DNA of 64,000 bases. It comes from Sulfurimonas sp. (lineage in GTDB: Bacteria > Campylobacterota > Campylobacteria > Campylobacterales > Sulfurimonadaceae). The notes below the pieces were generated by a model, which saw only the letters and a program-made list of their open reading frames with translations, did no database searches and had not been told where the DNA came from. Below are positions 3,617 to 56,219 of the stretch, piece after piece (position 1 is the stretch's first letter; the number at the start of each line of letters is the position of its first letter). Location: positions 2,963-66,962 of the forward strand of contig NZ_JAQVKA010000002.1 of assembly GCF_028694895.1 (NCBI RefSeq). The letters run 5' to 3'. A program made the position numbers and the translations under genes.

Positions 3617-4552
3617 TTATTTAAATATCTCTATAAATTTATTTATCAATTTAGAATCTAAATAATCCTTCATTTGAAGTTTCATCAGCTTTAGGGCATC
3701 AAAAGTAAGCATAGCATCTCTATATGTTCTTTTGCTTGTTATTGCGTTAAAAATGCTACATATGCTTATAATACGAGCATAAAGAGGAATATCTTCTTCT
3801 TTAAGTCCGCAAGGATAACCACTCCCATCAATCTTTTCATGATGATATATTATACCAGCTAGAATATTTTCATTTTTTATACCAATTTTTTTTGCCATCT
3901 CATACCCAAAGAGAGCGTGTTTCTTTACCTCTTCAAACTCTTTTTTTGTTAACTTTGTATTTTTATCTATAATATTAGAATCAATTTTAATTTTTCCTAT
4001 ATCATGCAACATTGCAGATTCACCAAGTTCATGAAGTTCATCTTTGCCAAGTCCAATGCAAGTACCTAGACACAAAGAGTAAATAGCCACATTTAAAGAG
4101 TGCGTATGGACATAGTATTCACTTGTTGCTTCACTCATCAACGACTTTACTCTAAACTTTTCATCTGCTACTGTTCCAACAATATCACCTACTATTTTTT
4201 TGATGCAATCATAGTTAGTAATGTCTTCTGGATTGTCAAAGAACTCAAGTAACTTTTCTGAAGCGTTCTTGTATAATATTTTAGATTCTGCTTCAAAACT
4301 AACGTTCTTACTTTTAACTATAGAATTAAGATATGTTTTATAGTATTTTTTATACTCAATATACTCAGAATCAACTACAAAGATCAATTCTGCATTTTGT
4401 AACTCTGTTTTGTTCTCGCAAGCTATAACAAAACCCTTACTTATACAACACTTTATATCTGTTTTAGACTCTAACGAAAAAAAGATATCAAAATCATAAT
4501 AAAGACCTTCTTTAATGATGTTTTTATCAATTGAAATATACTTACTTGACAT
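3617..4552 (-). CDS. HD-GYP domain protein (putative cyclic-di-GMP phosphodiesterase) with an uncharacterised N-terminal domain
   Basis: 311 aa. HDIGK and HHEKIDGSGYP motifs in the C-terminal half. Confidence 0.8.
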   Translation of the reverse strand: MSSKYISIDKNIIKEGLYYDFDIFFSLESKTDIKCCISKGFVIACENKTELQNAELIFVVDSEYIEYKKYYKTYLNSIVKSKNVSFEAESKILYKNASEKLLEFFDNPEDITNYDCIKKIVGDIVGTVADEKFRVKSLMSEATSEYYVHTHSLNVAIYSLCLGTCIGLGKDELHELGESAMLHDIGKIKIDSNIIDKNTKLTKKEFEEVKKHALFGYEMAKKIGIKNENILAGIIYHHEKIDGSGYPCGLKEEDIPLYARIISICSIFNAITSKRTYRDAMLTFDALKLMKLQMKDYLDSKLINKFIEIFK

Positions 4553-4681
4553 TATTATTTACCCAATTTATCATATAGATTTGTATTTTAAAAAATTATA
4601 CATTCCCTTACTTTAATAACTCTTTTATACAAGAGCCAATTATCTCACTTTATACTTTTTTGGTTACATTTATAACTAAAG

Positions 4682-4690
4682 TGTTATAAT
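4682..4690 (+). promoter_or_regulatory. extended -10 promoter candidate (TGTTATAAT) for the 4716-10035 operon
   Basis: TGnTATAAT match about 26 nt upstream of the TTG start. GGAG ribosome-binding site at 4706-4709. Confidence 0.4.
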
Positions 4691-4715
4691 TTGGCTTAAA
4701 TTAATAGGAGAAATT

Positions 4716-5582
4716 TTGGTAGAGATTTTTAAATTATTTAGAGTCCATCAATATATAAAGAACCTTTTTATATTTATGCCACTGCTCTTTTCGTTCTCTT
4801 ACATGGACGCTCACGACAACATCTATACTCTTATAACATTTGTTCTTTTTTCTCTTCTAGCAAGTAGCGTTTATATCTTTAACGACCTTATGGATATAAA
4901 TGAAGATAGAGCCCATCCAACTAAAAAATATCGCCCAATTGCAAGTGGAGCAGTCTCAACAAAGAGAGCAAAATCACTTATATTAGTATTATCACTCACA
5001 TCTTTATCTCTATCGCTTGTACTTAGTTTTAAGCTTTTTATTGTTCTTTTAATCTACTTTATTTTAAATATTTCATACTCAACAAAACTAAAACATATTG
5101 CTATTTTAGATATATTTATAATCGCTACAGGCTTTGTTTTGAGACTCTTTGCGGGTTCTGTTGTAACAGACATAAACCTCTCTATGTGGATTATCCTTAT
5201 GACTTTTCTTCTTGCTATATTTTTAGCTTTAGCAAAAAGAAGAGATGACGTGCTCCTTTCCCTTGAGGGTCAAGAGACTAGAAAAAACATAGATGGATAT
5301 AACCTTGAGTTTGTAAATGCGGCTATGGTTCTTATGGCTGGTGTTGTGGTTGTTAGCTACATACAGTACACAATTTCTCCTGAGGTAATTGAGCGAATCG
5401 GAACAGAGTATCTCTATCTAACCTCATTTTTTGTAGTCCTTGGCATACTTAGATATATGCAGATAACTTTTGTAGAACAAGATAGCGGTAGTCCGAGTAA
5501 AATCGTAATAAAAGATACTTTTTTAAAAGTCACTATACTCTTTTGGCTCATTAGCTTTTTGGTAGTTACAAAACTTATATGA
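4716..5582 (+). CDS. UbiA-family polyprenyl-phosphate phosphoribosyltransferase (decaprenyl-phosphate 5-phosphoribosyltransferase-like)
   Basis: 288 aa polytopic membrane protein with a TTG start. The Asp-rich motif NDLMDINEDRAHPTKKYRPIASG is characteristic of the DPPR synthase (Rv3806c-type) branch of the UbiA family. Confidence 0.8.
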   Translation: MVEIFKLFRVHQYIKNLFIFMPLLFSFSYMDAHDNIYTLITFVLFSLLASSVYIFNDLMDINEDRAHPTKKYRPIASGAVSTKRAKSLILVLSLTSLSLSLVLSFKLFIVLLIYFILNISYSTKLKHIAILDIFIIATGFVLRLFAGSVVTDINLSMWIILMTFLLAIFLALAKRRDDVLLSLEGQETRKNIDGYNLEFVNAAMVLMAGVVVVSYIQYTISPEVIERIGTEYLYLTSFFVVLGILRYMQITFVEQDSGSPSKIVIKDTFLKVTILFWLISFLVVTKLI

Positions 5583-5968
5583 TTGCACTTAGATATATAC
5601 TATTTGCAGTTCTCTCAACTGCGCTAAATATACTTTTTCAGTACCTTAGCTTTATGCTCTACGGTGGCTTTTTATCGCTCTATGTTGCAATGTTTATCGG
5701 TACTGTCGCTGGTTTAGTTTTAAAATATATATTAGATAAAAAGTACATCTTTTTTCACACACCAAAGAGCAAACGTGATGATGGACGGAAGTTTTTTCTA
5801 TACTCTTTGATGGGACTCTTTACAACTTTTATCTTTTGGGGTTTTGAGATCAGCTTTGATGCTCTGTTTGTGAATGAAAATGCAAAATACATAGGTGCTG
5901 TTATAGGCCTTAGCATCGGATACGTTGTAAAGTATTTTCTAGATAAAAAATTTGTCTTTAAGGATTAG
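5579..5968 (+). CDS. GtrA family membrane protein
   Basis: 129 aa with four predicted TM helices and the C-terminal KY(F/I)LDKK(F/Y)(V/I)F repeat typical of GtrA-like proteins. ATGA overlap with the upstream gene. Confidence 0.7.
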   Translation: MIALRYILFAVLSTALNILFQYLSFMLYGGFLSLYVAMFIGTVAGLVLKYILDKKYIFFHTPKSKRDDGRKFFLYSLMGLFTTFIFWGFEISFDALFVNENAKYIGAVIGLSIGYVVKYFLDKKFVFKD

Positions 5969-5970
5969 TT

Positions 5971-7263
5971 ATGAGTCTGCTTAGTTGGGGAATGTTTCCA
6001 AACATACAAAACAAAATATTTACTCTTCGAGATGAGAAAAGCCTCTCTTCATACATAAAAGAGACAGATGAGTTTATACCTTATGGAAATGGCAGAAGCT
6101 ATGGAGATAGTGCACTGAACGACAATATCATCTACGCAAAACCTTACAACAATTTTTTATCTTTTGATGATAAAAAAGGGATATTGCATGCTCAAGCTGG
6201 TGTACTTCTAAGCGAGATACTAGAAGCCTTTGTTAGTCGTGGATGGTTTTTAAAAGTAACTCCTGGAACAAAACTTATAACTTTAGGCGGAGCGATTGCT
6301 AGTGATGTTCATGGTAAAAATCATCATGTTGAAGGCTGTTTTAGTGAGTGCGTTGAAGAGTTTACTATCATGGGTGTTGATGGCAAAATAAAGAGCTGTA
6401 AAAGAGGCGATGAGCTGTTTTTAGCTACATGTGGCGGCATGGGTTTAACTGGCGTAATACTAAGTGCAAAGATATCGCTAAAGAAGATAAACTCTAAAAA
6501 TATAAATCAAACAACTATCAAGACAAAAAACTTAAAAGAGACATTTGAAGCGTTTGAAAATAATAAGGAAAAGCCCTATTCTGTGGCTTGGATAGACTGT
6601 TTAGCCAAGGATAAAGATATTGGAAAATGTCTGCTTATGGTTGGAGATTTTGCAGATGATGGCAACTTAGAGTATAAAAGTAAAAAGAAGCTAACCATTC
6701 CATTTAACTTCCCCTCATTTGCGCTAAATACACTAAGCGTAAAGGCGTTTAACTATCTTTACTACGCAAAGGCAAAAGATGGTATCTCAAAGCAAAAAGT
6801 AGATATCGATACTTTTTTCTATCCACTTGATGCCATTGGAGATTGGAATAAAATCTATGGAAGTGGTGGGTTTACACAGTATCAGTTTATACTTCCTAAA
6901 GAGCAGAGTTACAAGGGTTTAAAAGAGATACTTACTAAGATTTCCGCTTCAGGAAAAGGCTCATTTTTGGCTGTTTTAAAACTTTATGGCAAAGAGAATA
7001 AAAACTACCTCTCATTTCCTCTTGAAGGCTACTCTTTAGCACTTGATTTTAAGATAGAGCGCGGGCTATTTGAGCTTTTAGATGCGCTTGATGAAGTAGT
7101 TATAAGACACGGTGGAAGAATCTACCTCACAAAAGATGTGCGTGTAAGTAAAGAGACATTTGAGAAAGGTTATCCTCAAATAGAGAAGTTTAGAGCATAC
7201 AGAAAAGAGCATAAAATGGATAAAAAATTAAATTCACTACAATCAAAAAGGGTTCAAATATGA
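5971..7263 (+). CDS. FAD-binding oxidoreductase, DprE1-like (polyprenyl-phospho-ribose 2'-oxidase-like)
   Basis: 430 aa. FAD-linked oxidase motifs GNGRSYGDSAL and GGAIASDVHGKNHH. Sits in the operon between the UbiA-type transferase and an SDR. Confidence 0.75.
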   Translation: MSLLSWGMFPNIQNKIFTLRDEKSLSSYIKETDEFIPYGNGRSYGDSALNDNIIYAKPYNNFLSFDDKKGILHAQAGVLLSEILEAFVSRGWFLKVTPGTKLITLGGAIASDVHGKNHHVEGCFSECVEEFTIMGVDGKIKSCKRGDELFLATCGGMGLTGVILSAKISLKKINSKNINQTTIKTKNLKETFEAFENNKEKPYSVAWIDCLAKDKDIGKCLLMVGDFADDGNLEYKSKKKLTIPFNFPSFALNTLSVKAFNYLYYAKAKDGISKQKVDIDTFFYPLDAIGDWNKIYGSGGFTQYQFILPKEQSYKGLKEILTKISASGKGSFLAVLKLYGKENKNYLSFPLEGYSLALDFKIERGLFELLDALDEVVIRHGGRIYLTKDVRVSKETFEKGYPQIEKFRAYRKEHKMDKKLNSLQSKRVQI

Positions 7264-7991
7264 GTTATGTTTTAATACTAGGCGCAAAAGGCGACATGGC
7301 AAAAGAGTTAGCACGTGTATATGCAAAAAATGGTTACAACCTCTACTTAGCGGCAAGAGAGGCTTCAACCCTAGAGGATTTAAAACAAGACATTGAAGTA
7401 AGAAGTGGAGTTGATGTTGAGCTAGTAGAGTTTGATATAACTGCCTTTGAGACTCATGAGAAGTTTTACACTTCACTAAAGAAGAGACCTCTTGGCGTAA
7501 TAGTTGTAGCTGGTTTTATGTGTGAGCAAAAAGTAGCGCAAAATGACTGGAGCAAGACGCTACAAACCATAAACGTAAACTACACAGGCGCACTTAGTAT
7601 CTTAAATATAGTTGCAAATGATTTTGAAAAAGAGAGACACGGTTTTATAGTTGGAATCAGTTCAGTTGCAGGTGATAGAGGAAGAAAAACAAACTATATC
7701 TATGGAAGTGCAAAAGCTGGTTTTTCTGCGTATTTGAGTGGTTTAAGAAACAGACTTTATGAGAGTGGCGTGAGTGTTTTAACTGTAAAACCAGGATTTG
7801 TAAATACAAAAATGACTGAATCACTTGATTTGCCTAAAAACCTAACAGCACAGCCAGAGGACGTGGCTGAAGATATATTTAAAGCACAACAGCGTGGGCG
7901 AAACATCATATATACAAAGTCTATCTGGATGTTTATTATGCTCATAATCAAGCATATCCCAGAGTTCATATTTAAGAAAATGAGCATATGA
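7260..7991 (+). CDS. short-chain dehydrogenase/reductase, DprE2-like
   Basis: 243 aa. Glycine-rich cofactor site ILGAKGDMAKE and catalytic YGSAK (YxxxK). 4-nt overlap with the upstream DprE1-like gene. Confidence 0.7.
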   Translation: MSYVLILGAKGDMAKELARVYAKNGYNLYLAAREASTLEDLKQDIEVRSGVDVELVEFDITAFETHEKFYTSLKKRPLGVIVVAGFMCEQKVAQNDWSKTLQTINVNYTGALSILNIVANDFEKERHGFIVGISSVAGDRGRKTNYIYGSAKAGFSAYLSGLRNRLYESGVSVLTVKPGFVNTKMTESLDLPKNLTAQPEDVAEDIFKAQQRGRNIIYTKSIWMFIMLIIKHIPEFIFKKMSI

Positions 7992-9460
7992 TTAGAAGTT
8001 ATCAAAAAGAGCTCCTTTGGCTCTTTAGTATCTTTATCTTTAAGATAGCCATTCTTATCATGTTGCCTCTTACGGGCGATGAAGCCTACTTTATAAAGTG
8101 GGGTAACAATTTATCCTTTGGCTATTATGATCACCCTCCAATGGTTGGCTGGATAATATATCTGATGAGCTTCCTTAGCGATTCGCATATCTTCTTTAGA
8201 CTCTTTGCAGTCGTTACAACTTTTGTAACTGCTTATGTTATCTATAAAATAGCCCTACTCTACCATGTACAAAAGCATAAAGCCGCTCTTGTCTCATTTA
8301 TCTTCTTAGCTTCTCCTATCGATGTGCTGCTGGTACTTATGACAAACGATGTAGCCCTACTTTTCTTTAGCTCGCTTGGAACTCTTTTCTTTTTATACTC
8401 ACTAGAGAGAGGACGTTTATCTTACGCTATCTTGGCTGGTCTTTTTTTAGGAGCTGCATTTTTAAGTAAATATTTCGCTGTTTTTTTAATGATATCTCTA
8501 CTTCTTTTCTCGTTTTATATATATGGTCGCAAAGCCCTAAAGAGCGTACTTATCGTCGCATTTATCGTCTCTGTTTTCATTGCTCAAAACCTCTACTTTA
8601 ACTATAACAGTTGCTGGAATAACATACTCTTTAATTTCTTTGCAAGAACACAGAGTAGTAGCTATAACATCGGCTCTGTCTTAGGATATTTTGGACTTAT
8701 TTTATATATACTAACCCCTTGGGGACTCTACTATTTGTACAAAACAAAGTTTAGTAAAAACAATCTTTTAAAGCTTCTTATATCAATACTAAGCGTTGCA
8801 TTTTTTATCTTTTTTATAGTCTCTTTAAAGAACAATATAGGCCTTCACTGGTTTTTGATATTTGTACCATATATCTTTTTGCTCTTTACTTTTATGGATG
8901 ATAAGCATCTAAAAAAACTACTCAAATATAATGTTATATTTACCTCTGTTCATATTATTATCTTGATGAGTATTTTAAACACTCCTCCATCACTTCTTAG
9001 CGAGCATAAAAAATACTCTGACATTGTTATGTATACCCAGCCAGAGGTTTTATGTAAAAAGCTTGAAATCTTTGATGATGAGAAGATTTTTACACTTGGT
9101 TACTCAACTGCGTCTCTTCTTTCTCACTACTGCAAAAGAGAGGTATATACCATCTTTAACAACTCAAAATACGGACGTATGGATGATAAACTCTTAGATG
9201 TAAGAACTCTAGAGGGCAAAGATATCACCATCTTTAACAAAAGCCCTATAAAAAAAGAGCAACTACAAAGTGTATGTTCTTCATCTGAACTTAGCAGTTT
9301 CGAGCTAAATGATGCAACTTTTTACACTGCAAAATGTAGAGATTTCAACTATGATGAGTATAAAAAACTATATCTTGAGTATCAAAATAAGCACTTTTAC
9401 AACATCCCTTCGTGGCTTCCACTTGGGAAATGCTACTTTAAAGAGAGGTATTTTAATTGA
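7988..9460 (+). CDS. GT-C fold glycosyltransferase (ArnT/PMT family 39/83-like), polyprenyl-phosphate-sugar dependent
   Basis: 490 aa. About 10 or more TM helices followed by a soluble C-terminal domain. N-terminal loop motif GDEAYF, typical of the ArnT/PMT catalytic Asp-Glu. Confidence 0.7.
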   Translation: MIRSYQKELLWLFSIFIFKIAILIMLPLTGDEAYFIKWGNNLSFGYYDHPPMVGWIIYLMSFLSDSHIFFRLFAVVTTFVTAYVIYKIALLYHVQKHKAALVSFIFLASPIDVLLVLMTNDVALLFFSSLGTLFFLYSLERGRLSYAILAGLFLGAAFLSKYFAVFLMISLLLFSFYIYGRKALKSVLIVAFIVSVFIAQNLYFNYNSCWNNILFNFFARTQSSSYNIGSVLGYFGLILYILTPWGLYYLYKTKFSKNNLLKLLISILSVAFFIFFIVSLKNNIGLHWFLIFVPYIFLLFTFMDDKHLKKLLKYNVIFTSVHIIILMSILNTPPSLLSEHKKYSDIVMYTQPEVLCKKLEIFDDEKIFTLGYSTASLLSHYCKREVYTIFNNSKYGRMDDKLLDVRTLEGKDITIFNKSPIKKEQLQSVCSSSELSSFELNDATFYTAKCRDFNYDEYKKLYLEYQNKHFYNIPSWLPLGKCYFKERYFN

Positions 9461-10035
9461 ATCTAGCCTTATTTGATTTTGATGGAACACTAACTACAAA
9501 AGACTCTTTAGATGAGTTTTTAAGATACAGCGTTGGCAAAAATAGATACCTACTAAACATGCTCAAATTCATTCCTAATTTTGCTCTTTGGAAATTAAGA
9601 TTTATATCAAACTCAAAAGCAAAAGAACGTTTATTTGAGATATTTTTCAAAGGCATGGACGAGGCACTATTTCGAGCTAAAGCAAAAAGTTTTTCTCTAT
9701 ATAAACTTGACTCAATCATAAATGAGCAGAGAATGAACATCCTTAAAGAACATCAACAGAGCAACACAAGAGTAGTAATAGTCTCAGCTTCTATGAAGTG
9801 TTGGTTAGAGCCATGGTGTAGAAAAAATGATATTGAACTTCTATCCACTGAACTAAAGTTTGAAGATGGCAAATACAGTGGCAAATTTTTAACCCCAAAC
9901 TGCCATGGACAAGAGAAAACCAATCGCATAAAAGAGTATCTAAATCTTGATGAGTATGAGACTATTTATGCATACGGAGATAGCTCTGGAGATATGCAGA
10001 TGCTGGCTATGGCACACTTCCCAACAAAGTACTAA
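9457..10035 (+). CDS. HAD-IB family hydrolase/phosphatase
   Basis: 192 aa with a TTG start overlapping the upstream stop. HAD motif I DFDGTLT and motif IV GDSSGD. Confidence 0.8.
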   Translation: MNLALFDFDGTLTTKDSLDEFLRYSVGKNRYLLNMLKFIPNFALWKLRFISNSKAKERLFEIFFKGMDEALFRAKAKSFSLYKLDSIINEQRMNILKEHQQSNTRVVIVSASMKCWLEPWCRKNDIELLSTELKFEDGKYSGKFLTPNCHGQEKTNRIKEYLNLDEYETIYAYGDSSGDMQMLAMAHFPTKY

Positions 10036-10049
10036 TTAAAAATCTAATG

Positions 10050-10066
10050 GGCTAATAACTTTAGCC
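10050..10066 (+). terminator. hairpin after the HAD gene (GGCTAA-taact-TTAGCC) followed by a T-rich tract
   Basis: 6-bp perfect stem 15 nt after the stop codon. The downstream sequence ttgttaatcttatttgttt is T-rich. Confidence 0.4.
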
Positions 10067-10302
10067 TTGTTAATCTTATTTGTTTAAGCTACATCGTGTT
10101 TGTTATGTAGTTTTTTCAACAATTAACAAACACTTTTGTATGTTATTTCTCCATATGACATTTAACACACACTAAATATTTAAGAATAATAAGTATATTT
10201 TCTCCTAAAGTTAAAAAATATTGTAATTTGTCATATTTTTCATCAAATTTTAATAATTAACACACATTTAACATGTAAGTTATTTTTATTTTTTTAAGTT
10301 GG

Positions 10303-10314
10303 TGTGTATATAAT
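10303..10314 (+). promoter_or_regulatory. promoter-like element (TGTGTATATAAT) 16 nt upstream of the first cassette boundary
   Basis: TATAAT at 10309-10314 preceded by TG repeats. It is the only obvious -10 box upstream of cassettes 1 and 2, and neither cassette has a comparable box of its own. Confidence 0.35.
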
Positions 10315-10342
10315 GTGTTTGAATAAATAGTTATGTGAAGGA

Positions 10343-10846
10343 ATGAATATGCATGAAGAAAAATCTGTACAAGAAATGATGTCTGCTTTAGGAATGGCTA
10401 CATTTCAGGCACAAGCACTTGAATATTCACTTGTTACATTGCATGCAGTTACAGTCCGAAAGAATGAAAAACCAGAAAAGAATATCATTCAAGATCTAAT
10501 GGATACGCGATACAAGCAAACCTTAGGACGACTGATAACAGATGCGTTTAAAACGCTTGATATACCTATTTCATTACAAGAAAAATTAAAAAATGCCTTA
10601 GAAAAAAGAAACTGGGTTACACATCACTTTTTTCGTAAATATGGTGCGATTGTATTTAATGTAGAGCTTCAAAAAAAAGTAACGCAAGAACTTATTGATA
10701 TTTGGTTATTTTTAGAAACTGTATGTGACGCCATACATGAATTGTCAGTACAAAGACTAAAAGATACTGGAAAGTCAGAAGTTGAAATCAATAAAGGCAT
10801 AGAAGAAGCAGTAAACAAGTATCTAAATGAATTAGCAAACACATAA
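10343..10846 (+). CDS. hypothetical protein, cassette 1; HEPN-like candidate (Rx4H motif)
   Basis: 167 aa with a sequence pattern that looks all-helical. R89-N-W-V-T-H94 (nt 10607-10624) fits the HEPN Rx4-6H catalytic motif and follows a TLGRLI...L...L helix pattern. GAAGGA ribosome-binding site. The ORF starts 7 nt after the cassette boundary box. Confidence 0.35.
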   Translation: MNMHEEKSVQEMMSALGMATFQAQALEYSLVTLHAVTVRKNEKPEKNIIQDLMDTRYKQTLGRLITDAFKTLDIPISLQEKLKNALEKRNWVTHHFFRKYGAIVFNVELQKKVTQELIDIWLFLETVCDAIHELSVQRLKDTGKSEVEINKGIEEAVNKYLNELANT

Positions 10847-10910
10847 CAAGTACGAGGAGACCAATAATTTACCCTAGCGGGAAAATTATTGCTCACGACA
10901 AACGTTGTAC
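10841..10910 (+). repeat. attC-like recombination site 1 (70 bp)
   Basis: ACATAAC-15 nt-AATAATTTACCC-TAGC-GGGAAAATTATT-13 nt-GTTGTAC. The 5' box overlaps the stop codon (10844-10846). The 12-bp apical stem has one A/A mismatch. The flanking arms pair only with bulges. Confidence 0.6.
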
Positions 10911-10927
10911 TATAAAAGGAACACTAA

Positions 10928-12328
10928 ATGATAAATAATTTTTATAGTGATATATTTCAAGTAAAACCTTCAGATTTAAAAACATATGATGTTTTCAATG
11001 GCTTTATCAATAAAGATTCACTTTATTATATAGTTCCTAGTGAACTTGAAAATATTCAAATAACAGAATTTAAAAAATCTTATTCTAAATACAAATTATT
11101 TTTTGAAAACATTATTAAGTTATTAGACAACTCAAATGGAAATGATAGGCTATATAGACAAGTTGAAAAATTATTTAGATTACATGAAGTAGGACATATA
11201 GGTTTGGGCTATTCAGAAAATAGCAAAAAAGGTTCTGGTATTGGTCCAAAATTAGCAGAAAAATTAACTCAGACTGCTTATGAACTTGTAAAAGTTGGAA
11301 TCAAAGATCCTGAAGTATTTCATTTGGTTGGATTACTTGAAGAAGGAATAGGTGCAGATAGAATTAGCGATATAACAGTTGCTATATTATTAGATGATTT
11401 TTTAACTTATACACAAAATGTATCTTTAAAATTAAAAATTAAAACGAATAAGTTCTCGTATAATAAAATTGACTATGCAATCCCTTTTTATCAAGATAAT
11501 CCAATAATATTTTGTCCAAAATCACTATTAACAGATTTACCAGTTGCTCTTGATTCAGAAGATATAAGTACTGTATGTTCTCATAATGAAGACTTACGAA
11601 ATAAAGCAAATCAGATTATTGCAGATGGTTTTTCCCAAGGCACGGTTAACTCTAAATTATATAAACAAAATTTAAAGTCACTCATACTTGCTAATCCTAA
11701 ACTTGTTCAAGAAGCTATAGCTACATATAAAGATAAAAGTACTTTTTATGATTTTGATAAAGACCCAAATGGAGATTTTATTTGGAAAGAGATAGCAGAA
11801 AATAGTATCAACAAGTATCCTTTACAGTTAGACAATAATAAAAAGCCTATTGAAATAGTAAATGATATATGTAATAAATTTCAAGATATGGTTGAAAATA
11901 ATGGACTTTGGAAGTTTTTTCATAATAGTGATGGGACACATAAAAATGAAACATTTTCACAATTACTATTTTTTGCAATAGCTCATTCATATTGCGAAAC
12001 TAATAACTTAGACTTAAGTCCAGAATCAGATGCAGGGAGAGGTCCTGTTGACTTTAAAATCAGCCAAGGCTTTAATGATAAAATAAATGTTGAAATTAAA
12101 CTTTCCACTAACAGATTATTGCATGGATTTCAAACTCAATTACCAATATATGATAAAGCAGAAAAAACTAATAAAAGTATTTTTTTAATTATTCAACTAT
12201 ACGATAGGCATGACAAGCAAATAAAAAAGGTGTTTGACTATAAAAATAAACATGAAACAGTAGATAAAAAACTTCCAAACATAGTAGTTATTGACGCTAC
12301 AAAAAAGATGTCAGCAAGTAAGTCGTAA
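10928..12328 (+). CDS. hypothetical protein, cassette 2; C-terminal RecB/Cas4-type PD-(D/E)xK nuclease domain, with an N-terminal region of about 330 aa of unknown function
   Basis: 466 aa. Ordered motif set: E341, GPVD375F, VE389-I-K391 and Q404-LPI-Y408 (nt 11948-12151). This is the nuclease core D...(D/E)xK...QxxxY. I recognise no family for the N-terminal two thirds. Confidence 0.5.
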   Translation: MINNFYSDIFQVKPSDLKTYDVFNGFINKDSLYYIVPSELENIQITEFKKSYSKYKLFFENIIKLLDNSNGNDRLYRQVEKLFRLHEVGHIGLGYSENSKKGSGIGPKLAEKLTQTAYELVKVGIKDPEVFHLVGLLEEGIGADRISDITVAILLDDFLTYTQNVSLKLKIKTNKFSYNKIDYAIPFYQDNPIIFCPKSLLTDLPVALDSEDISTVCSHNEDLRNKANQIIADGFSQGTVNSKLYKQNLKSLILANPKLVQEAIATYKDKSTFYDFDKDPNGDFIWKEIAENSINKYPLQLDNNKKPIEIVNDICNKFQDMVENNGLWKFFHNSDGTHKNETFSQLLFFAIAHSYCETNNLDLSPESDAGRGPVDFKISQGFNDKINVEIKLSTNRLLHGFQTQLPIYDKAEKTNKSIFLIIQLYDRHDKQIKKVFDYKNKHETVDKKLPNIVVIDATKKMSASKS

Positions 12329-12330
12329 AA

Positions 12331-12398
12331 GTACAACAAAACATAGTAGTCAATAAATTACCTAGCGGCAATTTATTGACTATATTCAAACGTTATAC
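12331..12398 (+). repeat. attC-like recombination site 2 (68 bp)
   Basis: GTACAAC-9 nt-TAGTCAATAAATTACC-TAGC-GGCAATTTATTGACTA-9 nt-GTTATAC. Starts 3 nt after the stop codon. Shares with site 1 the CC-TAGC-GG apex, the unpaired A next to the apex and the CAAACGTT(G/A)TAC 3' end. One stem pair covaries relative to site 1. Confidence 0.6.
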
Positions 12399-12441: not shown

Positions 12442-12630
12442 ATGGTAGCTGTAAAACAAGAAGCACAAGATATGATTCAAAATCTTCCTGACAACTGTAC
12501 ATATGAAGATATTCAGTATCATCTTTATGTTGTAGAAAAAATCAAAAATGGCATTAATCGTGCAGAAAATGGTGAAGTCTCATCTCATCAAGACGCAAAA
12601 GAAAGAATGGCTAAATGGCTATCAAACTAG
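12442..12630 (+). CDS. putative antitoxin, partner of the downstream RelE/ParE toxin
   Basis: 62 aa acidic protein. Overlaps the toxin ORF by 16 nt, which is the classic type II TA arrangement. Confidence 0.6.
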   Translation: MVAVKQEAQDMIQNLPDNCTYEDIQYHLYVVEKIKNGINRAENGEVSSHQDAKERMAKWLSN

Positions 12631-12926
12631 AGTGGTCAGAAGAAGCTCTTGAAGATATCGAATCTATTGCTATTTACATAGAAAAAGATTCGCCTGCGTA
12701 TGCAAAGTCCGTTGTTTCAAAGTTTTTTGAAAAAGCGGAGATTTTAAAAAAATTTTCTTCCCTTGGACGCAAAGTTCCTGAACTTAATGATAATAACATT
12801 CGTGAAATATTTGTTTATAGCTATAGACTGATTTACAAAATAGATGAAAATGCAGTTTTATTTGTAGCCATAATACATGGTAAAAGACTTCTTGAAAATC
12901 ACCAAAATATATCTAACAAAACATAG
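12615..12926 (+). CDS. type II toxin-antitoxin system RelE/ParE family toxin
   Basis: 103 aa. Typical ParE/RelE pattern: WSEEALEDIESIAIYIEKDSPAYA...GRKVPEL...IREIFVYSYRLIYKI...VLFVAIIHGKR. Confidence 0.8.
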   Translation: MAIKLEWSEEALEDIESIAIYIEKDSPAYAKSVVSKFFEKAEILKKFSSLGRKVPELNDNNIREIFVYSYRLIYKIDENAVLFVAIIHGKRLLENHQNISNKT

Positions 12927-12929
12927 CAG
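12911..12929 (+). repeat. remnant of attC-like site 3 (5' box and spacer only)
   Basis: ATCTAAC fits RYYYAAC. The following AAAACATAGCAG matches the corresponding part of site 2 (AAAACATAGTAG). The stem, apex and 3' box are missing, and the sequence runs straight into a truncated antitoxin gene. Confidence 0.45.
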
Positions 12930-12934
12930 CTGAT

Positions 12935-13150
12935 GTGTTGAAGCATATAAACGAAACACACCGACCGATGATAATCACACAAAATGGTGAAGCCAAGGCT
13001 GTTATCCAAGATCCAAAAAGTTATGAAGACATGAAAAATGCAATTTCTATTTTAAAGCTTCTTTCTTTTGCAGAAGAAGATATTAAAAACGGAAACCTTC
13101 ATGATGAAGAAGATGTCTTTAGTTCTGTAGAAGAACTACTTAAAAAATGA
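12935..13150 (+). pseudogene. Phd/YefM family antitoxin, N-terminally truncated (about 15-20 aa missing)
   Basis: 71 aa from a GTG codon. INETHRPMIITQNGEAKAVIQDPKSYEDM aligns with the middle of YefM/Phd proteins. The usual N-terminal beta-strand and helix are absent, and the break coincides with the attC remnant. Confidence 0.6.
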
Positions 13151-13371
13151 ATAAAACGTATAAACTTCAATGGACTATAAATGCAAAAAATGACCTTTTA
13201 AATATTGTTGATTACATTAAAAAAGATAGCCCTCATATAGCTAATGAGATTTATTTAAAAATTAGAGCTAAAGCCAAATCGAGCAATTTTTTCCCTTTAA
13301 AAAGTCGTATTGTACCTGAACTTCAAAAAGATAGTTATTGAGCATATCAAAAATATAGACTCATTTCGTAG
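13147..13371 (+). pseudogene. RelE/ParE family toxin remnant (premature stop, C-terminal part lost)
   Basis: The 64-aa ORF resembles the N-terminal 60% of the intact toxin at 12615 (KKDSPHIANEIY...SRIVPELQ). A TGA falls at 13339-13341. The same frame continues as AYQKYRLIS, which recalls the conserved YRLIY strand, and then hits TAG. Confidence 0.6.
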
Positions 13372-13420
13372 TGTAGATAACAAATCAAAAACGGGCTAAT
13401 CAAACTCTTTACATTTTTTT

Positions 13421-24936: not shown

Positions 24937-26159
24937 ATAAGAACTCAATAACTTTCTCAATAACCATAACATTTGTTATATCTATGCTTTTAATTTTCGT
25001 TAGCTTTAGCATATTTTATAAAGTTAGCCAAAAAAGAGAAGAGGTTTTTAATCTAAATAGAGAGATGCAAGCTGTACATATATTTCTAAAAGAGTTAAGA
25101 CATAATGGCATAACAGAAGAACTCAAAGAAGATTTAGCTCTTATAAACTACTCGATTTTAAGTGAAAATGAGCAAAAAAAGATACTTGAGAATCCAAACT
25201 TAAAATATAAAAAATCACACCCTAGAGTTAATAAAAATGCACATGTAAAACGACTAATACTTCATAATAAAGAGTATGTTTACATAGAGACTAAAAGAGG
25301 CAATACTCTTTTAGCCTCTAACAATCAAGTTCAAAGTTATAGCGAAATTATTATAGCTATTTTTATATTTATATTTTTTGTATTTGTTTTTCTATACTTC
25401 ATAACATTAAAAAAGTTAAAACCGTTAAAAAGCCTAAAAGAGAAGGTTAAAAACTTTGCAGATGAGGAGTTTGATATCTCATGTGCTAGTGATAAAAAAG
25501 ATGAAATATCGCTTCTCGCAAATGAGTTTGACAAATCAGCTAAAAAGCTAAAAAAACTAAAAGATTCTAGAAATATTTTTATTAGAAATATTATGCATGA
25601 ACTAAAAACACCAATCACAAAAGGAAAATTTTTAACTGAACTCCCATTTAGCGCACAGAACAACACTAAGATGCAAAAAGTTTTTTATAGACTTGAATCA
25701 CTTATAAATGAGTTTGCTTCTATTGAGGAGTTGATCTCCACTAAAAAAATTCTTCAAACAAAAGAGTATTACTTAGAAGACATCATAGATAATGCTATTG
25801 ATATTTTGATGTGTGATGAGACAAGTGTAGTCGCGGAATATGAAAATATAACTCTAAAAGTTGACTTTAAACTATTTAGTATAGCTATAAAAAACCTCAT
25901 TGATAACGCTATCAAATACTCACCTGATAAAAAAGTAACTATAAAAACAGAAGGTTCAAAGGTAATCTTTCAAAATAGAGGAAAAGCTCTAGCGCATGAG
26001 CTAGAGAGATACTACGAGCCATTTTTTAGCTCAGATACCACAGAGTCAAACCAAAGTTTTGGACTTGGTCTCTACATTGTACAAAACATACTTCAAGCAA
26101 GTGGATACAAACTAGAATATGAGTACAAAGATGAATTAAATATTTTTAGCTTGCAATAA
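24933..26159 (+). CDS. sensor histidine kinase
   Basis: 408 aa. Two TM segments, H-box FIRNIMHELKTPIT, and ATPase N and G boxes (DNAIKYS, GLGLYIV). Confidence 0.8.
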   Translation: MNKNSITFSITITFVISMLLIFVSFSIFYKVSQKREEVFNLNREMQAVHIFLKELRHNGITEELKEDLALINYSILSENEQKKILENPNLKYKKSHPRVNKNAHVKRLILHNKEYVYIETKRGNTLLASNNQVQSYSEIIIAIFIFIFFVFVFLYFITLKKLKPLKSLKEKVKNFADEEFDISCASDKKDEISLLANEFDKSAKKLKKLKDSRNIFIRNIMHELKTPITKGKFLTELPFSAQNNTKMQKVFYRLESLINEFASIEELISTKKILQTKEYYLEDIIDNAIDILMCDETSVVAEYENITLKVDFKLFSIAIKNLIDNAIKYSPDKKVTIKTEGSKVIFQNRGKALAHELERYYEPFFSSDTTESNQSFGLGLYIVQNILQASGYKLEYEYKDELNIFSLQ

Positions 26160-39857: not shown

Positions 39858-40367
39858 CTAGTTCTCTTTATTTAAAAGTTTTTTCCTAATTAGCGGATTG
39901 CGCAGAGTCTCTCCTCTTAGCATTCTAAGGCGCATTATATCAAAAGTTACAAGCCCATTAGAACTATGCTCATAAGCTCCAAAACCATATCCCATGGGGG
40001 TATCGTCTGTTAATGAATAAAAAGCATCTTTAGCATCTATCCATCTCTTTGTATCTCTACTCATTACCCAGATTTTAATGCTATTTTCAAGGTTTTTATC
40101 TTCTAACCATCTTATAAATCCACCATGATCATGAAAAAACCAGCTTTTACCATCTTTAGCGATTATCTGAGAAGCATCTCTTAAATCATCTATAACCATT
40201 CCACAATCACTATCTTGATAGATTCCAGCACTCATCTCAAGAGGAATTTGTGCAAAGTTACCCTCTTGAACAACAATCATTTTTTTACTAGAGGCTAAAA
40301 ATATAAAAATTAAAACAAGCGTACCAACAAAAAGAGCAAGAAAAAGAAACGGTAAAGTTTTTTTCAT
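39858..40367 (-). CDS. membrane-anchored NosL-like protein (putative metal chaperone)
   Basis: 169 aa with an N-terminal TM anchor. DCGMVIDD...ASQIIAKDGKSWFFHDHGG resembles the NosL family C-x-M metal-binding region. Confidence 0.4.
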   Translation of the reverse strand: MKKTLPFLFLALFVGTLVLIFIFLASSKKMIVVQEGNFAQIPLEMSAGIYQDSDCGMVIDDLRDASQIIAKDGKSWFFHDHGGFIRWLEDKNLENSIKIWVMSRDTKRWIDAKDAFYSLTDDTPMGYGFGAYEHSSNGLVTFDIMRLRMLRGETLRNPLIRKKLLNKEN

Positions 40368-40412
40368 TTTTTAAACCTTTATCAGCTTTGATAAATCATA
40401 TTTTATATATAT

Positions 40413-40438
40413 ATTCTATTTGATTTATCAAATAGAAT
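40413..40438. promoter_or_regulatory. perfect 12-bp inverted repeat ATTCTATTTGAT-tt-ATCAAATAGAAT (operator or terminator candidate)
   Basis: Seen directly, 46 nt upstream of the 39858-40367 gene start. A second palindrome, TTTATCA-gctt-TGATAAA, lies at 40378-40395. Confidence 0.35.
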
Positions 40439-40510
40439 GCATTAAACATTAATATTACGCTTCTTTTAAAACAAACATCATATTTTACATAAGTAAGCGT
40501 TACATTAGTA

Positions 40511-40990
40511 TTAGGTATCTCTTCGTTTCTTTCCTTTGGCAACATCATCATGAATCAAAAAAAGAGCTAAATCATCTTTTAACTCATCACTTAACTTATC
40601 CCATATCTTTTTTTTGCGTTCATATCTTTTTGGATTCTCTTTTATACTTTTACTCAAATCTCGTATAAGATAGTGGTAACGAACTATGCTCTTGGTATAT
40701 GAGCCTACAAAGTACCAATTTTTAATAATCTGGTAGCTTCTCTCTTCATGATCTGTAAAACTATATTCATTAAATTTTATATCTTCTTCATCTTTTTTAA
40801 AAGCTGCATATGGTTTTCCTATGTCATGTAGTAATGCTGCAGTAAAAAACCTAAACTCTCTGGCTTTAATAACATTATATACAACACGAAGAGTGTGAAC
40901 TAAAACTCCGTGTTGATGCCATTTATTTTGTGTAAAAAGAAGAGATTTCCAAAAAGCTTTTGATATCAGATTGTTTTTTACTCTACTCAT
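40511..40990 (-). CDS. HD domain phosphohydrolase
   Basis: HD motif LLHDIGKP. I prefer the start at ATG 40990 (MSRVKNN...), which forms an ATGA overlap with the upstream recombinase stop. The ORF track extends to 41017. Confidence 0.6.
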
Positions 40991-41813
40991 ATGCTCTCTT
41001 TTGCCATTGGATGACAAACCTCCAATGTCTCTTTTAAATCTTGTTTTTGTATATGCGTATATATTTGCGTACTTAGAAGTGAAGAGTGTCCTAGTAACTC
41101 TTGAACAACTCTTAAATCTGCTCCACCAGCAATTAACGCTGTAGCGTATGAATGCCTAAGAACATGAGGAGAGACTCCTAGTATTTTTGAGTTATCTTAT
41201 ATGCAGATATTCTACTAAGCCTATCGCCCTTGTAGTTCTGCCAAACATACTCTTTTGTTTTATCGAGTTCATTAAGATAAGCGTCAACAGCTACTTTAGC
41301 GATAGAAGCGATTGGAACGATACGCTCTTTCTCGCCCTTTGCATGTCTTATATAAAGCCACTCACCCTCAATATCTTCTTTGCTTAATGCTAGACATTCA
41401 CTAATCCTTGCTCCTGTTGCATATAAAAAAATTATTATAGCATAGTCTCTAAGGCCTATAATTGTGCTTCTATCAATCAAAGATAGAGCATTTTGTATCT
41501 CTTGATATGAAAGAAACTTTGGAAGCAGTTTTGAGATTTTAGAAAATTTTAGTTTTTTCTTCTCATCTACAAATTGATTTTTATAACAAAAATCAAAAAA
41601 AGCGTTTACTGAGGATAGTTTTCTATTGAGAGTTCTTTTGTTTTTGTATTGGCTTAAAAGATTAAAAAGGGTTTTTGAATCTAATGAAATCAGCGGCTTA
41701 TTTAGAGATAATTCTATCTGTTCTAAATCACTTCTATAAGCATCAACGCTTCTCTTACTAAGAGCTTTTATAACGCTTATATACTCTATAAAAGCCTCTA
41801 ACTCGTTTGACAT
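40987..41813 (-). pseudogene. Xer-type tyrosine recombinase interrupted by a 1-nt frameshift
   Basis: The N-terminal ORF (41178-41813) has the SAM-like core-binding domain and the ATGARISE Arg. The catalytic C-terminus ([13 protein letters not shown]...[14 protein letters not shown]) continues in another frame down to the stop at 40987-40989. The two frames meet at a T5 run at 41184-41188 (A5 on the coding strand). Confidence 0.75.
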
Positions 41814-41815
41814 CT

Positions 41816-42814
41816 CTACTCTACTGAAATATACTCATCATGAACAAAAAAGATTTTACCATCTATATAAACATATCCATCTTCAACATCTGCTTCATAG
41901 ATACTAGATGATGATAAATCTATTGGCATCTCGATAAGATATCCCTCTTTTTCTAAAGCATATAGTTTATTATTGTTTAAAATAAGTCCTAAAAAGTGTG
42001 CAAAAGCAAACTTAAGTCTTGCATTTTCTTTTAAGTCAGATGTTAAAGATACGATTTCGCCTTGTTTTGTAGCGATATAGATGTTTTTATCATCAGTTAC
42101 TACGCTTCTTATATCAAATGGCAATCTAATCTCATCTTGAGATAAAGAGAGTATTTTATTTCCGGTTGCTGCAATGATTTTATTATCTAGTAAATTAAAG
42201 AAGATAACATTATTAAAATGCTCTTCAGTGCTTACAATAATCGTTCTTAGTCTCTTTTTTGTCTCTTCATTTATGATTACTATTTTTCCATCTAATGTTG
42301 CAAAAATAACAAGTTCATCCCTAAAATAAGGCTTAATTATCTTTGAGTTTACAACTATCGGAGGATTTCCCTGCTCTTTTAAAAGTAGTGCTTTACTCTT
42401 TATCGAGTATAGCGCCATTTCATTATCTGAGAAAAGAACAGCTAGAGTATCTTTTTTAACACTAGCTGTAGCAATAGTCTTCTTTAAGTTAAATGTTTCA
42501 ATATTTTTTTTATCTGCAATACTTTGAAGAGTTAAGTTTCCATCAATGTTTGAGCTTAATATCCATCCATCACTCTCGCCTAAAAGTTTTTCATCCTCAG
42601 CAATAAAAACATTAACCACTTTTCCATTAGCAAGGATCTCTCTATCGTCAACTAATGCGGCATTTTGAGAAATACCTTTTATAGTTACATCACTGCTACC
42701 AGAGTAATCCCAACTATCAACTACATCTTTAGGTTTAAAAACTTCTTTTGAGCCACATGCGCTAAATAGTAAAGCAACTATTAATGGTATGAAAATAGTA
42801 TATAAAGTTCTCAA
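41816..42814 (-). CDS. lipoprotein, BamB-like beta-propeller candidate
   Basis: 332 aa. Lipobox LFSACGS. Repetitive beta-strand-rich sequence. Lies directly downstream of a YfgM-like gene, as in the proteobacterial yfgM-bamB arrangement. Confidence 0.4.
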   Translation of the reverse strand: MRTLYTIFIPLIVALLFSACGSKEVFKPKDVVDSWDYSGSSDVTIKGISQNAALVDDREILANGKVVNVFIAEDEKLLGESDGWILSSNIDGNLTLQSIADKKNIETFNLKKTIATASVKKDTLAVLFSDNEMALYSIKSKALLLKEQGNPPIVVNSKIIKPYFRDELVIFATLDGKIVIINEETKKRLRTIIVSTEEHFNNVIFFNLLDNKIIAATGNKILSLSQDEIRLPFDIRSVVTDDKNIYIATKQGEIVSLTSDLKENARLKFAFAHFLGLILNNNKLYALEKEGYLIEMPIDLSSSSIYEADVEDGYVYIDGKIFFVHDEYISVE

Positions 42815-42818
42815 AATA

Positions 42819-43460
42819 TTACTTTATTCCGTAGTGCATAAGTATTGCAACTAATTTTTCTAATGATGACTCTTTTGAAACTTTCTCAAGTGAATTTCTA
42901 GCTTCATCAATCTTATTTTCATTTAATAGCATAATCGCTCCTTGAACAAGTGCTAAATCTCTAAAGATTGCATCTTGCTTTGAAGCGTATTCTGCAAGCA
43001 TAGAGTTGTCTGTCGCCATCTCATACTCAGCCATATCACTAACAATAAGGGCTTTCGTATGTTTTAAACTTTTAAGTTTTTCTATGTCTTTATTTGCAAT
43101 AGCTTGTGAGAAAATCCAAGCGTCATGAAGATTTGGTGCTAAAGATTTAAGCTCACTTAGTGCTGCTGCATCACTTGGGTTTAATGCAAGTTTTGAAAAA
43201 GCAATATTTGCTTCTTTTGTTTTACTTTTTTCATTTGCTTCATAAGCGATATTTGCAGCTACAAGCACAACGATAGCAGCAATAGAAGCTATAATTGCTT
43301 TTTTGTATTTTTTAATAAATCTCTCAGTAACAACTGCTTTTTCAAAAAACTTCTCTTCGGAGTTTAACTCCTGTCTTATCATCTCAATATTATCTTTTAA
43401 ACTCAAAATATTCCTTAGTGTTTCTTTGTATGTATCATAAAGTTTAAAATAGTATCGCAT
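42819..43460 (-). CDS. membrane-anchored TPR-like protein (YfgM-like)
   Basis: 213 aa. A single TM helix after about 55 aa, followed by a helical-repeat periplasmic domain. Confidence 0.4.
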   Translation of the reverse strand: MRYYFKLYDTYKETLRNILSLKDNIEMIRQELNSEEKFFEKAVVTERFIKKYKKAIIASIAAIVVLVAANIAYEANEKSKTKEANIAFSKLALNPSDAAALSELKSLAPNLHDAWIFSQAIANKDIEKLKSLKHTKALIVSDMAEYEMATDNSMLAEYASKQDAIFRDLALVQGAIMLLNENKIDEARNSLEKVSKESSLEKLVAILMHYGIK

Positions 43461-43533
43461 ATTTTGTTAAACTTTCATCAAAGAGATAGATTTTTTTTGT
43501 TACAATCTTATAAATTAATACTAAGGTAATTAA

Positions 43534-43824: not shown

Positions 43825-43886
43825 GTACCTATTTAAAAAGTGTTAAACTTTAAAGCCCAAAATTTAAAAAACAGAGGTGCGTAATC

Positions 43887-55142: not shown

Positions 55143-55150
55143 TGTATTCC

Positions 55151-55396: not shown

Positions 55397-55547
55397 GTAA
55401 TATGCCTTTTTTAACAAGTTTCGCGCCATTGTATAACATCAAAGTTTAAAAAGAGTTTGTGATTACCCTTTATGTTTCAACTAAGAACTAAGTTGTTACT
55501 TTTAGATTATATAATCCGCAAATCAATAATAATGAGTAGGATATAAA

Positions 55548-55853: not shown

Positions 55854-55904
55854 TTAAAATATTTTTCGATTTTAAAAAATAAAAATATATGATTGGAGCG
55901 CGTT

Positions 55905-56213: not shown

Positions 56214-56219
56214 GTTTTT

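Follow-up and report, generated by a model that had tools for sequence, protein, structure and literature searches.

A mobile single-gene integron cassette of Sulfurimonas sp. encodes a DUF8370–DUF8371 protein with a predicted RecB-like nuclease module and a candidate role in defence

Introduction

Among the cassettes of chromosomal integrons there are many streamlined defence systems of a single gene, and several of these are nuclease fusions (Darracq et al. 2024, bioRxiv 10.1101/2024.07.02.601686). Shedu is among the commonest defence systems in these cassettes, where it occurs together with ParE/RelB toxin–antitoxin (TA) modules (bioRxiv 10.1101/2024.07.02.601686). Here we describe a cassette gene from Sulfurimonas sp. 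that encodes a protein of 466 amino acids (aa). The gene lies at 10928..12328 on the + strand of a stretch of 64,000 nucleotides (contig NZ_JAQVKA010000002.1 of assembly GCF_028694895.1, positions 2,963 to 66,962 of the forward strand); this whole stretch is called the window in what follows. We find that the gene is a mobile single-gene integron cassette and that the C-terminal part of its product is predicted, with great confidence, to adopt a RecB-like PD-(D/E)xK nuclease fold. From the context we consider it probable, though well short of certain, that the protein is an autonomous single-protein, nuclease-based factor which serves in defence or in the exclusion of mobile genetic elements (MGEs).

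Among the systems described so far, Epona, Divona, Damona, Sirona and Nemetona from the Vibrio cholerae integron resemble the present case in that they are nuclease-fusion cassettes with one open reading frame (ORF) each which lie beside ParE/RelB-type TA cassettes. Their domains, however, are Mrr_cat, DUF4365, DUF6602/RmuC-like and HNH, none of which matches the 466-aa protein, and here the host is Sulfurimonas and the array has no adjacent integrase. Shedu (SduA) is likewise a single gene found in defence islands and combines an N-terminal region with a C-terminal PD-(D/E)xK nuclease; the nuclease module of the 466-aa protein, too, is combined with several unrelated N-termini at the superfamily level. 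An earlier note on this DNA, made from the letters alone, had pointed to a Shedu-type layout. The layout is indeed analogous but membership in Shedu does not follow from it: the protein has no match to SduA_C/DUF4263 (PF14082, E ≤ 1) or to the Shedu models of PADLOC, while the same searches detected SduA_C in three neighbouring genes of homolog loci. In addition, the family of the 466-aa protein has a RecB-type QxxxY motif and an N-terminus which is conserved and not hypervariable.

The PDC families of PADLOC are candidates defined by their recurrent embedding in known defence loci, and four of eight randomly tested candidates protected (PMC12881386). One of them, PDC-M36A (PDLC04597/PDLC04598), has a homologous N-terminal domain and a similar length (457-position profile). 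The alignment is partial, however: of the 457 profile positions the window protein covers 63-211 and its relatives never more than 8-269, so that the C-terminal half is unmatched. No PDC-M36 partner is present among the top 25 PADLOC families of 139 neighbours of homologs (the composition of PDC-M36 is not described in the literature searched), and a literature search returned no paper on the candidate PDC-M36. Judged by its sequence, the 466-aa protein is not Shedu, not Cas4 (see below) and not a full member of PDC-M36A.

The predicted C-terminal nuclease module

The ORF starts with ATG and agrees exactly in position, strand and length with the earlier description; the proposed catalytic residues named there are also found in place, from E341 (nucleotides 11948-11950) through Y408 (12149-12151). 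Its AT-richness is real: the content of guanine and cytosine (GC) is 26.8% as compared with a window mean of 33.6% (standard deviation 2.6%, 1.4-kb windows), and 1.1% of the 1.4-kb windows are equally low. In the precomputed Pfam annotation a 100%-identical protein (P0001) is matched by both PF28123 (DUF8370) and PF28130 (DUF8371), and both domains are pre-annotated in all 120 listed homologs. Our local Pfam scan of the protein was empty because these two models are newer than the Pfam copy that was used. Neither the single sequence nor a full-length profile nor a nuclease-only profile gave a significant match in local Pfam, NCBIfam or PDB sequences; a match to SLFN12 (E 0.74) was discarded as noise. 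The literature search returned no paper on DUF8370/PF28123 or DUF8371/PF28130.

The nuclease module comprises aa 335-466 (11930..12325, + strand), and its catalytic motifs E341, E366, D375-F-K377, E389-x-K391 and Q404-xxx-Y408 span 11948..12151 on the same strand. The set E...D...ExK...QxxxY is the signature of the RecB-family nucleases of repair and recombination. In the AlphaFold2 model of the protein (mean predicted local distance difference test score, pLDDT, 83.6; predicted template modelling score, pTM, 0.80; 69 homologs as input) the module forms an alpha-beta-beta-beta-alpha-beta core with helix 341-358, strands 362-365, 376-379 and 386-392, helix 397-411 and strand 416-423. E341 opens the first helix, D375 stands directly before strand 376-379, E389 and K391 lie within strand 386-392 and Q404 and Y408 within helix 397-411. 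This motif order, with E in helix 1, D in strand 2, ExK in strand 3 and QxxxY in helix 2, and the predicted core topology are those of the RecB family (RecB/AddB, Cas4, lambda Exo, NucS/EndoMS, SfsA).

The earlier note had read these residues as a complete RecB-type set, and their conservation argues against chance matches. In 117 full-length homologs D375, E389, K391, Q404 and Y408 are 100% and E341 is 99% conserved. We also compared 42 highly diverse C-terminal modules, with identities down to 28% and including proteins with unrelated N-termini; here E366, D375, F376, K377, E389, K391, Q404 and Y408 are strictly invariant. The invariance of the motifs holds in homologs down to 24-28% identity. 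The residues on whose loss the earlier note would have given up its reading are thus kept in both sets.

Structure comparison points in the same direction, at a level below significance. With the full model Foldseek found nothing below E 0.03 in PDB and BFVD (best E 0.03-0.2). The weak matches are mostly proteins of the restriction endonuclease (REase) fold, namely Kpn2I, SfsA, OkrAI, BamHI, EndoMS, BbvCI and Cdn1, and the best of these have E 0.2-3 and a probability of at most 0.41. The structural check proposed earlier has thus given a canonical predicted core and a list of weak matches in which REase-fold proteins dominate. EndoMS and SfsA, both of the RecB family, are among them; the protein nevertheless differs from this family in having no significant sequence or structure similarity to it and in that its gene has no helicase partner and no cas genes. 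It differs from Cas4 also in its cysteines, of which only C217, C315 and C356 are conserved and form no four-cysteine Fe-S pattern, and cas genes are absent among the neighbours.

The module is also found on at least three unrelated N-termini, that is, the DUF8370 type, a Bacillus thuringiensis protein and proteins of viral contigs. The B. thuringiensis plasmid protein has 392 aa (locus L092, 3341-4519), is 39% identical over aa 311-465 and keeps all nuclease motifs. A weak match links it to the C-terminal end of EruA, a NACHT antiphage protein (NCBIfam NF058535, E 4.7e-6) on which the literature search returned no paper. Two viral contigs encode proteins of 476-484 aa which share only the nuclease module (L114, 5041-6471; L115, 5023-6477) with 39-46% identity. 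A Pfam scan of the alternative N-termini was empty. A conserved SASK tail (S462-K465) closes the module. We note that the tail ...(I/V)DA..K.SASK is nearly invariant (12311-12325, aa 462-466) in all architectures with the nuclease module, although its pLDDT is low.

Given the motifs and the model, we are confident that the C-terminal ~130 aa are predicted correctly as a RecB-like PD-(D/E)xK nuclease fold. In our estimate it is quite likely that the module would also be catalytically active.

The N-terminal domain

Residues 1-330 (10928..11917, + strand) form a DUF8370-type domain, which in the AlphaFold2 models is mostly helical with a beta-hairpin at 173-188. Modelled in isolation the domain reaches pLDDT 84.4 and pTM 0.81. 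Foldseek found no counterpart of the isolated domain in PDB; the best hits (E 0.25, probability ≤0.08, TM ≤0.19) are generic helical bundles only. On the basis of the model, the domain is a new fold that has no structural precedent in PDB. The earlier statement that the N-terminal two thirds resist assignment has held up, since local Pfam, NCBIfam and PDB searches were empty as was Foldseek. The domain is, however, homologous to the first ~250 positions of PDC-M36A: the window protein matches with E 5e-10, and among remote relatives the E-value falls as low as 3.5e-25.

The domain is well conserved. No other 30-residue block of the protein is as strongly conserved as aa 121-150, and the top conserved N-terminal motifs in the homolog alignments are L93-G-Y-S96, a glycine-rich loop with G102 and G106, and, within that block, G142-x-D144-R145-x-S147-D148 (11204..11377, + strand). 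Fourteen polar or aromatic N-terminal residues are invariant (D30, Y95, D144, R145, S147, D148, N220, R224, N228, K246, Y274, D279, W286 and E323). The earlier note had compared the protein with layouts that have a variable N-terminus. Within the family the N-terminus is not variable, as the identity of distant pairs is 41% in the N-terminal domain versus 45% in the nuclease; variability is seen at the superfamily level only, where the module is attached to the unrelated N-termini described above.

The integron cassette

We are confident that the gene is carried by a mobile cassette. It is flanked by attC-like sites, the same unit recurs in four unrelated contexts, and sister strains carry different cassettes at the same junction. 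Cassette 2, as we number it in the array, extends over 1,488 bp (10905..12392, + strand) and contains the 466-aa ORF as its single gene. The cassette starts with TTGTAC, which is exactly complementary to the GTACAA of its 3' R'' box, as is expected if G↓TT (the arrow marks the junction) is the crossover point. A Shine-Dalgarno-like AAAGGAA (10915..10921, + strand) stands 7 nt 5' of the ATG and is conserved in L088, L089 and L090. In the 81-nt gap before the gene a promoter scan found no promoter-like site. The unit of TTGTAC...AAAGGAA leader, ORF and attC was found again at the four loci L088-L091, with protein identities of 74-91%.

The attC-like site of cassette 2 (12331..12398, + strand) consists of R'' GTACAAC (12331-12337), a 16-bp imperfect stem and R' GTTATAC (12392-12398), with the crossover at G12392↓T12393. 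The site of cassette 1, which precedes the 466-aa gene (10841..10910, + strand), has R'' ACATAAC, an imperfect hairpin and R' GTTGTAC (10904-10910). The strand selectivity of attC sites is ascribed to extrahelical bases and an unpaired central spacer (PMC2727003, PMC5027507). The predicted fold of both bottom strands has the R-box stem on the outside and a long imperfect stem, with an unpaired spacer between the two; extrahelical bases are not confidently assignable by folding. As single-stranded DNA (ssDNA) the bottom strand of the first site folds with -14 kcal/mol (z = -6.0) and that of the second with z = -5.5, and in neither case was any of 200 shuffled sequences as good.

Seven attC sites can be aligned in register and share a 14-pair consensus stem with 4 compensatory pairs. 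We built a covariance model from six sites. It matches the site of cassette 2 with 89 bits (E 9e-23) and that of cassette 1, which is part of the training set, with 63 bits (E 4e-15). At least 14 further sites outside the training set were recovered, every one of them on the coding strand with a stop codon immediately before it: seven in the sister strain locus L122, two in L120, one in L090, where it follows a Pycsar-like cassette of two genes, and others in L089. Within the 64-kb window the model finds only the two expected sites, and it finds none at the homolog loci that are not cassettes.

In the sister strains, whose PyrD is identical to 90% or more, other genes occupy the same junction between the HAD hydrolase gene and pyrD, and the 466-aa gene is missing there. 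In L120 the array (4785-6855) encodes HNH, CxxCxxCC and Phd plus ParE proteins, and that of L122 (356-6807) holds at least 11 genes. Seen together, the two arrays encode HNH nucleases, several Phd/ParE pairs, one ankyrin-repeat protein, one RDD protein and proteins of the CxxCxxCC and Zn-ribbon types, and attC matches bound each cassette.

Distribution of the family and neighbourhoods of homologs

Full-length relatives form at least 607 clusters in a large protein database. When the N-terminal 335 aa alone served as the query of an exhaustive HMMER search, 1,052 representatives at 50% clustering were obtained, 233 of them at E ≤ 1e-30. In the 150 representatives listed, the great majority are 460-490 aa long with intact nuclease motifs, and this near-uniform length points to a very stable architecture of two domains. 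The 507 loci found in a genome scan are distributed patchily across phyla: Campylobacterota, Cyanobacteria, Bacteroidota, Acidobacteriota, Chloroflexota, Firmicutes, Beta- and Gammaproteobacteria, several lineages of the candidate phyla radiation (CPR) and one archaeal metagenome-assembled genome. A DUF8370+DUF8371 homolog is also present on conjugative plasmids. Phage genomes are nearly free of the family: none of 50,697 phage records contains it, and a set of 2.9 million viral contigs has only 21 loci. These counts argue against the phage origin that we had considered because phrog_30194 matches the protein full-length; the 21 copies in viral contigs are probably prophage or defence cargo.

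The survey of homolog neighbourhoods suggested by the earlier note was carried out on 73 non-redundant loci. No neighbour gene is conserved across them, and since the gene is also alone in its cassette, the 466-aa protein should work autonomously. At least 17 of the 139 immediate neighbours (at least 12%) are recognisable defence genes. In comparison, about 1.5% of bacterial genes are predicted to be anti-phage according to a review (PMC13434031); our value is a lower bound and the comparison is not a formal statistic. The defence neighbours include four AAA_15/AbiL/AriA/PtuA-like ATPases (AbiL/PARIS/Septu-type), three Type I specificity subunits, three SduA_C proteins and two HsdR, further N6_Mtase/Eco57I, C5-methyltransferase, DpnI and PIN_8 proteins. 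An HsdR-like protein (~800-1050 aa) is encoded within three genes in six loci. Close relatives adjoin AbiJ-like and RhuM genes (L089) and a gene pair for a 380-aa and a PycTM protein (L090). On plasmids, the contexts are SIR2, DUF3427 and GIY-YIG in Rhodobacter, an Eco57I-type methyltransferase with helicase and AbiEi/AbiEii in Legionella, a methyltransferase-helicase-GIY-YIG operon in Paenarthrobacter and Septu PtuA in Janthinobacterium.

At three loci (L009, L014 and L057, about 4400-7400) the start of the homolog overlaps the stop codon of the gene before it, whose size is that of HsdS or HsdM. The position inside apparent Type I restriction–modification (R-M) operons is reminiscent of prrC within the EcoprrI locus, and one may speculate that the copies translationally coupled in this way have a PrrC-like guard role.

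Two other arrangements were considered and set aside. In another Sulfurimonas lineage, at loci L002-L007 and L013 (about 6400-10112), a 61%-identical homolog is packed tightly between genes for 533 aa and 235 aa, the former being split in some strains into 275+271 aa with an overlapping start codon. This locus has no attC matches and thus is not a cassette, and it lies near GmrSD, nSTAND3 and PemK genes. The operon-like 533-aa/466-aa/235-aa arrangement of L002-L007 is not a general feature, as its flanking genes recur nowhere else and have no family matches. A Nitrosospira multiformis plasmid with a divergent tyrosine recombinase, a homolog and TA pairs gave the impression of a complete integron. 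However, its recombinase is of the Xer-like kind; it scores 64 bits with the integron-integrase model (cut-off 265 bits), and no attC follows the homolog.

Proposed function and competing explanations

We suggest that the protein probably acts as a stand-alone nuclease against invading DNA, and the following steps can be envisaged. The promoterless cassette 2 is second in the small array of this Sulfurimonas chromosome, and its transcription would probably start in the platform that precedes cassette 1. The N-terminal domain could recognise a feature of the invading DNA or nucleic acid, or it could keep the nuclease inactive until a trigger arrives. D375, E389 and K391 would bind Mg2+ and cleave the DNA, with Q404 and Y408 positioning the strand. 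Possible substrates would be linear phage genomes or replication intermediates. The QxxxY motif is typical of end- or flap-processing enzymes of the RecB family, more than of Type IV enzymes. This leads to the tentative prediction that cleavage would depend on free DNA ends or single-stranded regions rather than being site-specific restriction.

Several observations speak against such a role in defence or against the nuclease being at its centre. Neither sequence nor structure shows significant similarity to any characterised nuclease (Pfam, NCBIfam, PDB profiles, Foldseek), so that the fold assignment rests on the motifs, the predicted topology and sub-threshold matches. The N-terminal domain is conserved and not fast-evolving, which is unusual for a phage sensor. 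Relatives in Janthinobacterium, Calothrix and Legionella keep the N-terminal motifs but lose the equivalents of D375 and E389; thus the ancestral core of the function may lie outside the nuclease. Some neighbourhoods are of the housekeeping kind (L088; aconitase, nitrogenase and BipA neighbours). Finally, there is no methyltransferase or immunity partner through which self-DNA would be spared.

The last point would find an answer if the protein were a solitary Type IV-like modification-dependent restriction endonuclease, whose N-terminal domain reads a mark on foreign DNA; host DNA does not carry the mark and no methyltransferase is needed. A DNA-reading N-terminus followed by a PD-(D/E)xK C-terminus is the layout of Mrr/MspJI-type enzymes, and that of the 466-aa protein is the same. 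The single gene without a methyltransferase partner fits as well, the highly conserved and pocket-like N-terminal motifs would suit a fixed ligand, and homologs often lie inside or beside R-M operons, as at L009, L014 and L057, where genes for ~800-1050, ~480-495 and ~350-515 aa are consistent with HsdR, HsdM and HsdS. Yet Pfam, PADLOC and Foldseek gave no match to SRA, YTH, Mrr_N, DUF3427 or other modification readers, searches for a modification-reading or family-specific domain of the Type IV enzymes Mrr, McrBC, MspJI and GmrSD (Pfam, PADLOC, NCBIfam, Foldseek) were negative, and the QxxxY motif is more typical of another class of enzyme. We regard this explanation as unlikely; it is in any case a sub-type of the defence reading and not a true alternative to it. 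A little less probable still is a selfish or addiction-type nuclease or a factor in the competition between MGEs, which would mainly keep the array stable or act against competing plasmids and elements and not against phages, the role also ascribed to the neighbouring TA cassettes. The company of the gene is in keeping with this, for the rest of the array consists of ParE-type TA modules, the sister arrays carry TAs and HNH nucleases, and the family occurs on conjugative plasmids and is rare in phages. On the other hand the cassette with its one ORF holds no cognate antitoxin or immunity gene, and defence genes outnumber plasmid-maintenance genes among the neighbours of homologs.

The remaining two explanations appear to us improbable. 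If the N-terminal DUF8370 domain were the primary functional module, as an enzyme or a small-ligand receptor of new fold, the nuclease would be an accessory and sometimes dispensable output, and the system would follow a new logic other than that of a sensor coupled to a nuclease. The location of the top conserved block (aa 121-150) and of the 14 invariant residues, the relatives which have kept the N-terminal motifs without the D375/E389 equivalents, and PDC-M36A, which shares only this domain, can all be cited in its favour. The two domains stay together, however, in the great majority of the listed representatives (~465-490 aa, intact nuclease motifs), and no catalytic or ligand-binding fold was recognised when Foldseek was run with the isolated domain. 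The least probable explanation in our view is a housekeeping or accessory nuclease of repair or recombination, with end processing similar to RecB, AddB, Cas4 or NucS, that lies in variable regions by chance. It could draw on the RecB-family signature, on EndoMS/NucS and SfsA among the weak fold matches and on the housekeeping neighbours at some loci. It is at odds with the patchy and strain-variable phyletic pattern, the sister Sulfurimonas strains having no such gene at the same site, as well as with the mobility of the cassette, its low GC content and the missing helicase or recombinase partner; C217, C315 and C356 do not form the Cas4-type Fe-S pattern. Searches of Pfam, NCBIfam and PDB profiles returned no match to a repair-nuclease family or any other housekeeping nuclease; a match of this kind would, by the earlier note's own standard, have told against its reading.

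We therefore favour an autonomous nuclease-based factor in defence or MGE exclusion. Beyond this, one may speculate, with considerable reservation, that DUF8370+DUF8371 proteins represent a new autonomous single-protein immune system which integron cassettes and other MGEs have carried into most phyla of bacteria, CPR among them. In such a system the N-terminal domain with its unseen fold would do more than sense passively, be it as a receptor for a specific phage-derived molecule or DNA structure or be it as an enzyme, and would be the ancestral core and not the nuclease, because it is the part kept in PDC-M36A-like relatives with degenerate nuclease motifs.

Should the defence function prove true, this would be a compact and unusually widespread one-gene defence family of 1.4 kb, with about 1,050 clusters at 50% identity and with more than 500 species-level genomes from Campylobacterota to CPR, and it would carry a domain without structural precedent. 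The idea of integrons as defence biobanks would extend from Vibrio to Campylobacterota, and nature would offer an example of an array which, although integrase-less, still exchanges cassettes at its conserved attI-like junction. The family has already been flagged as DUFs in Pfam and indirectly by PADLOC; its value lies in experimental priority and not in conceptual surprise.

The attI-like platform and the remainder of the array

Upstream of the array and on the same strand are genes for an ArnT/PMT_2-like glycosyltransferase and a HAD hydrolase. They are followed by a non-coding segment of ~300 bp (10036..10330, + strand), which we call the attI-like platform. It contains a terminator-like hairpin (10049-10067) after the HAD gene and promoter-like sites of the + strand clustered at 10162-10286. 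A TATAAT box stands just before the junction ...AATAAATAG↓TT at 10330/10331. The number of promoter-like sites in the platform is not above background in the promoter scan, and for this reason its role as a promoter is inferred only. The platform is nearly identical in the sister strain L120 (4439-4745) and ~60% identical in L088 (7790-8025), a more distant relative with other flanking genes around it. Three different first cassettes are joined to the platform at the same nucleotide, with the junction ...TATAATGTGTTT(G)AATAAA(T/G)AG↓TT.

No integron integrase is adjacent, and the ten integrase-sized ORFs of the window that were tested are housekeeping genes; a recombinase family is not found among the 25 of 83 window families listed. 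With no adjacent integrase the array is classed as CALIN-type (cluster of attC sites lacking an integron integrase). It resembles a CALIN in having two intact attC sites and co-oriented promoterless cassettes, and no integrase in the 64-kb window among the ORFs tested. It is unlike one in that it retains the conserved platform with its three first cassettes at the same nucleotide. The platform looks like an active attI served in trans, and the shared junction points to integration that still goes on in trans and not to a remnant in decay. IntegronFinder has detected an In0 and a separate CALIN in Sulfurimonas autotrophica and two CALINs in Sulfurovum (PMC10295459), which would fit an integrase acting in trans.

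Cassette 1 (10331..10904, + strand) reaches from the attI-like junction to the G↓TT of its attC R' box and contains a 167-aa ORF (10343-10846). Searches of Pfam, NCBIfam, PADLOC and PHROGs gave no family match for this ORF, and no identical sequence exists in a collection of 15 billion proteins. The TA cassettes seen next to the 466-aa gene by the earlier note are indeed there. Cassette 3 (12442..12926, + strand) encodes a putative antitoxin of 62 aa and a ParE toxin of 103 aa (12615-12926; Pfam ParE_toxin, E 1.3e-17), and the same pair is also found 3' of the gene in L001. Cassette 4 (12935..13341, + strand) has decayed to a 5'-truncated Phd/YefM antitoxin and a truncated ParE of 64 aa, both with partial Pfam matches: Phd starts at GTG and matches from profile position 17, and ParE covers profile positions 2-53 of 89. 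After cassette 4 there is no fold signal and no covariance model match for an intact attC. Both the third and the fourth inter-cassette regions (12915-12960 and 13335-13420) were considered as intact attC sites and are treated as decayed, as neither shows such a signal or match.

In L090 (2706-4460) the 380-aa and PycTM-domain proteins form a Pycsar-like pair which makes up one two-gene cassette between two attC sites, directly downstream of the 91%-identical homolog of the 466-aa protein. Elsewhere in the window other patches of low GC content (26-31%) are seen at 25001-26000, 40001-44000 and 55001-57000, the one at 55-57 kb with small ORFs of 101, 106 and 172 aa. These patches may be further horizontally acquired islands.

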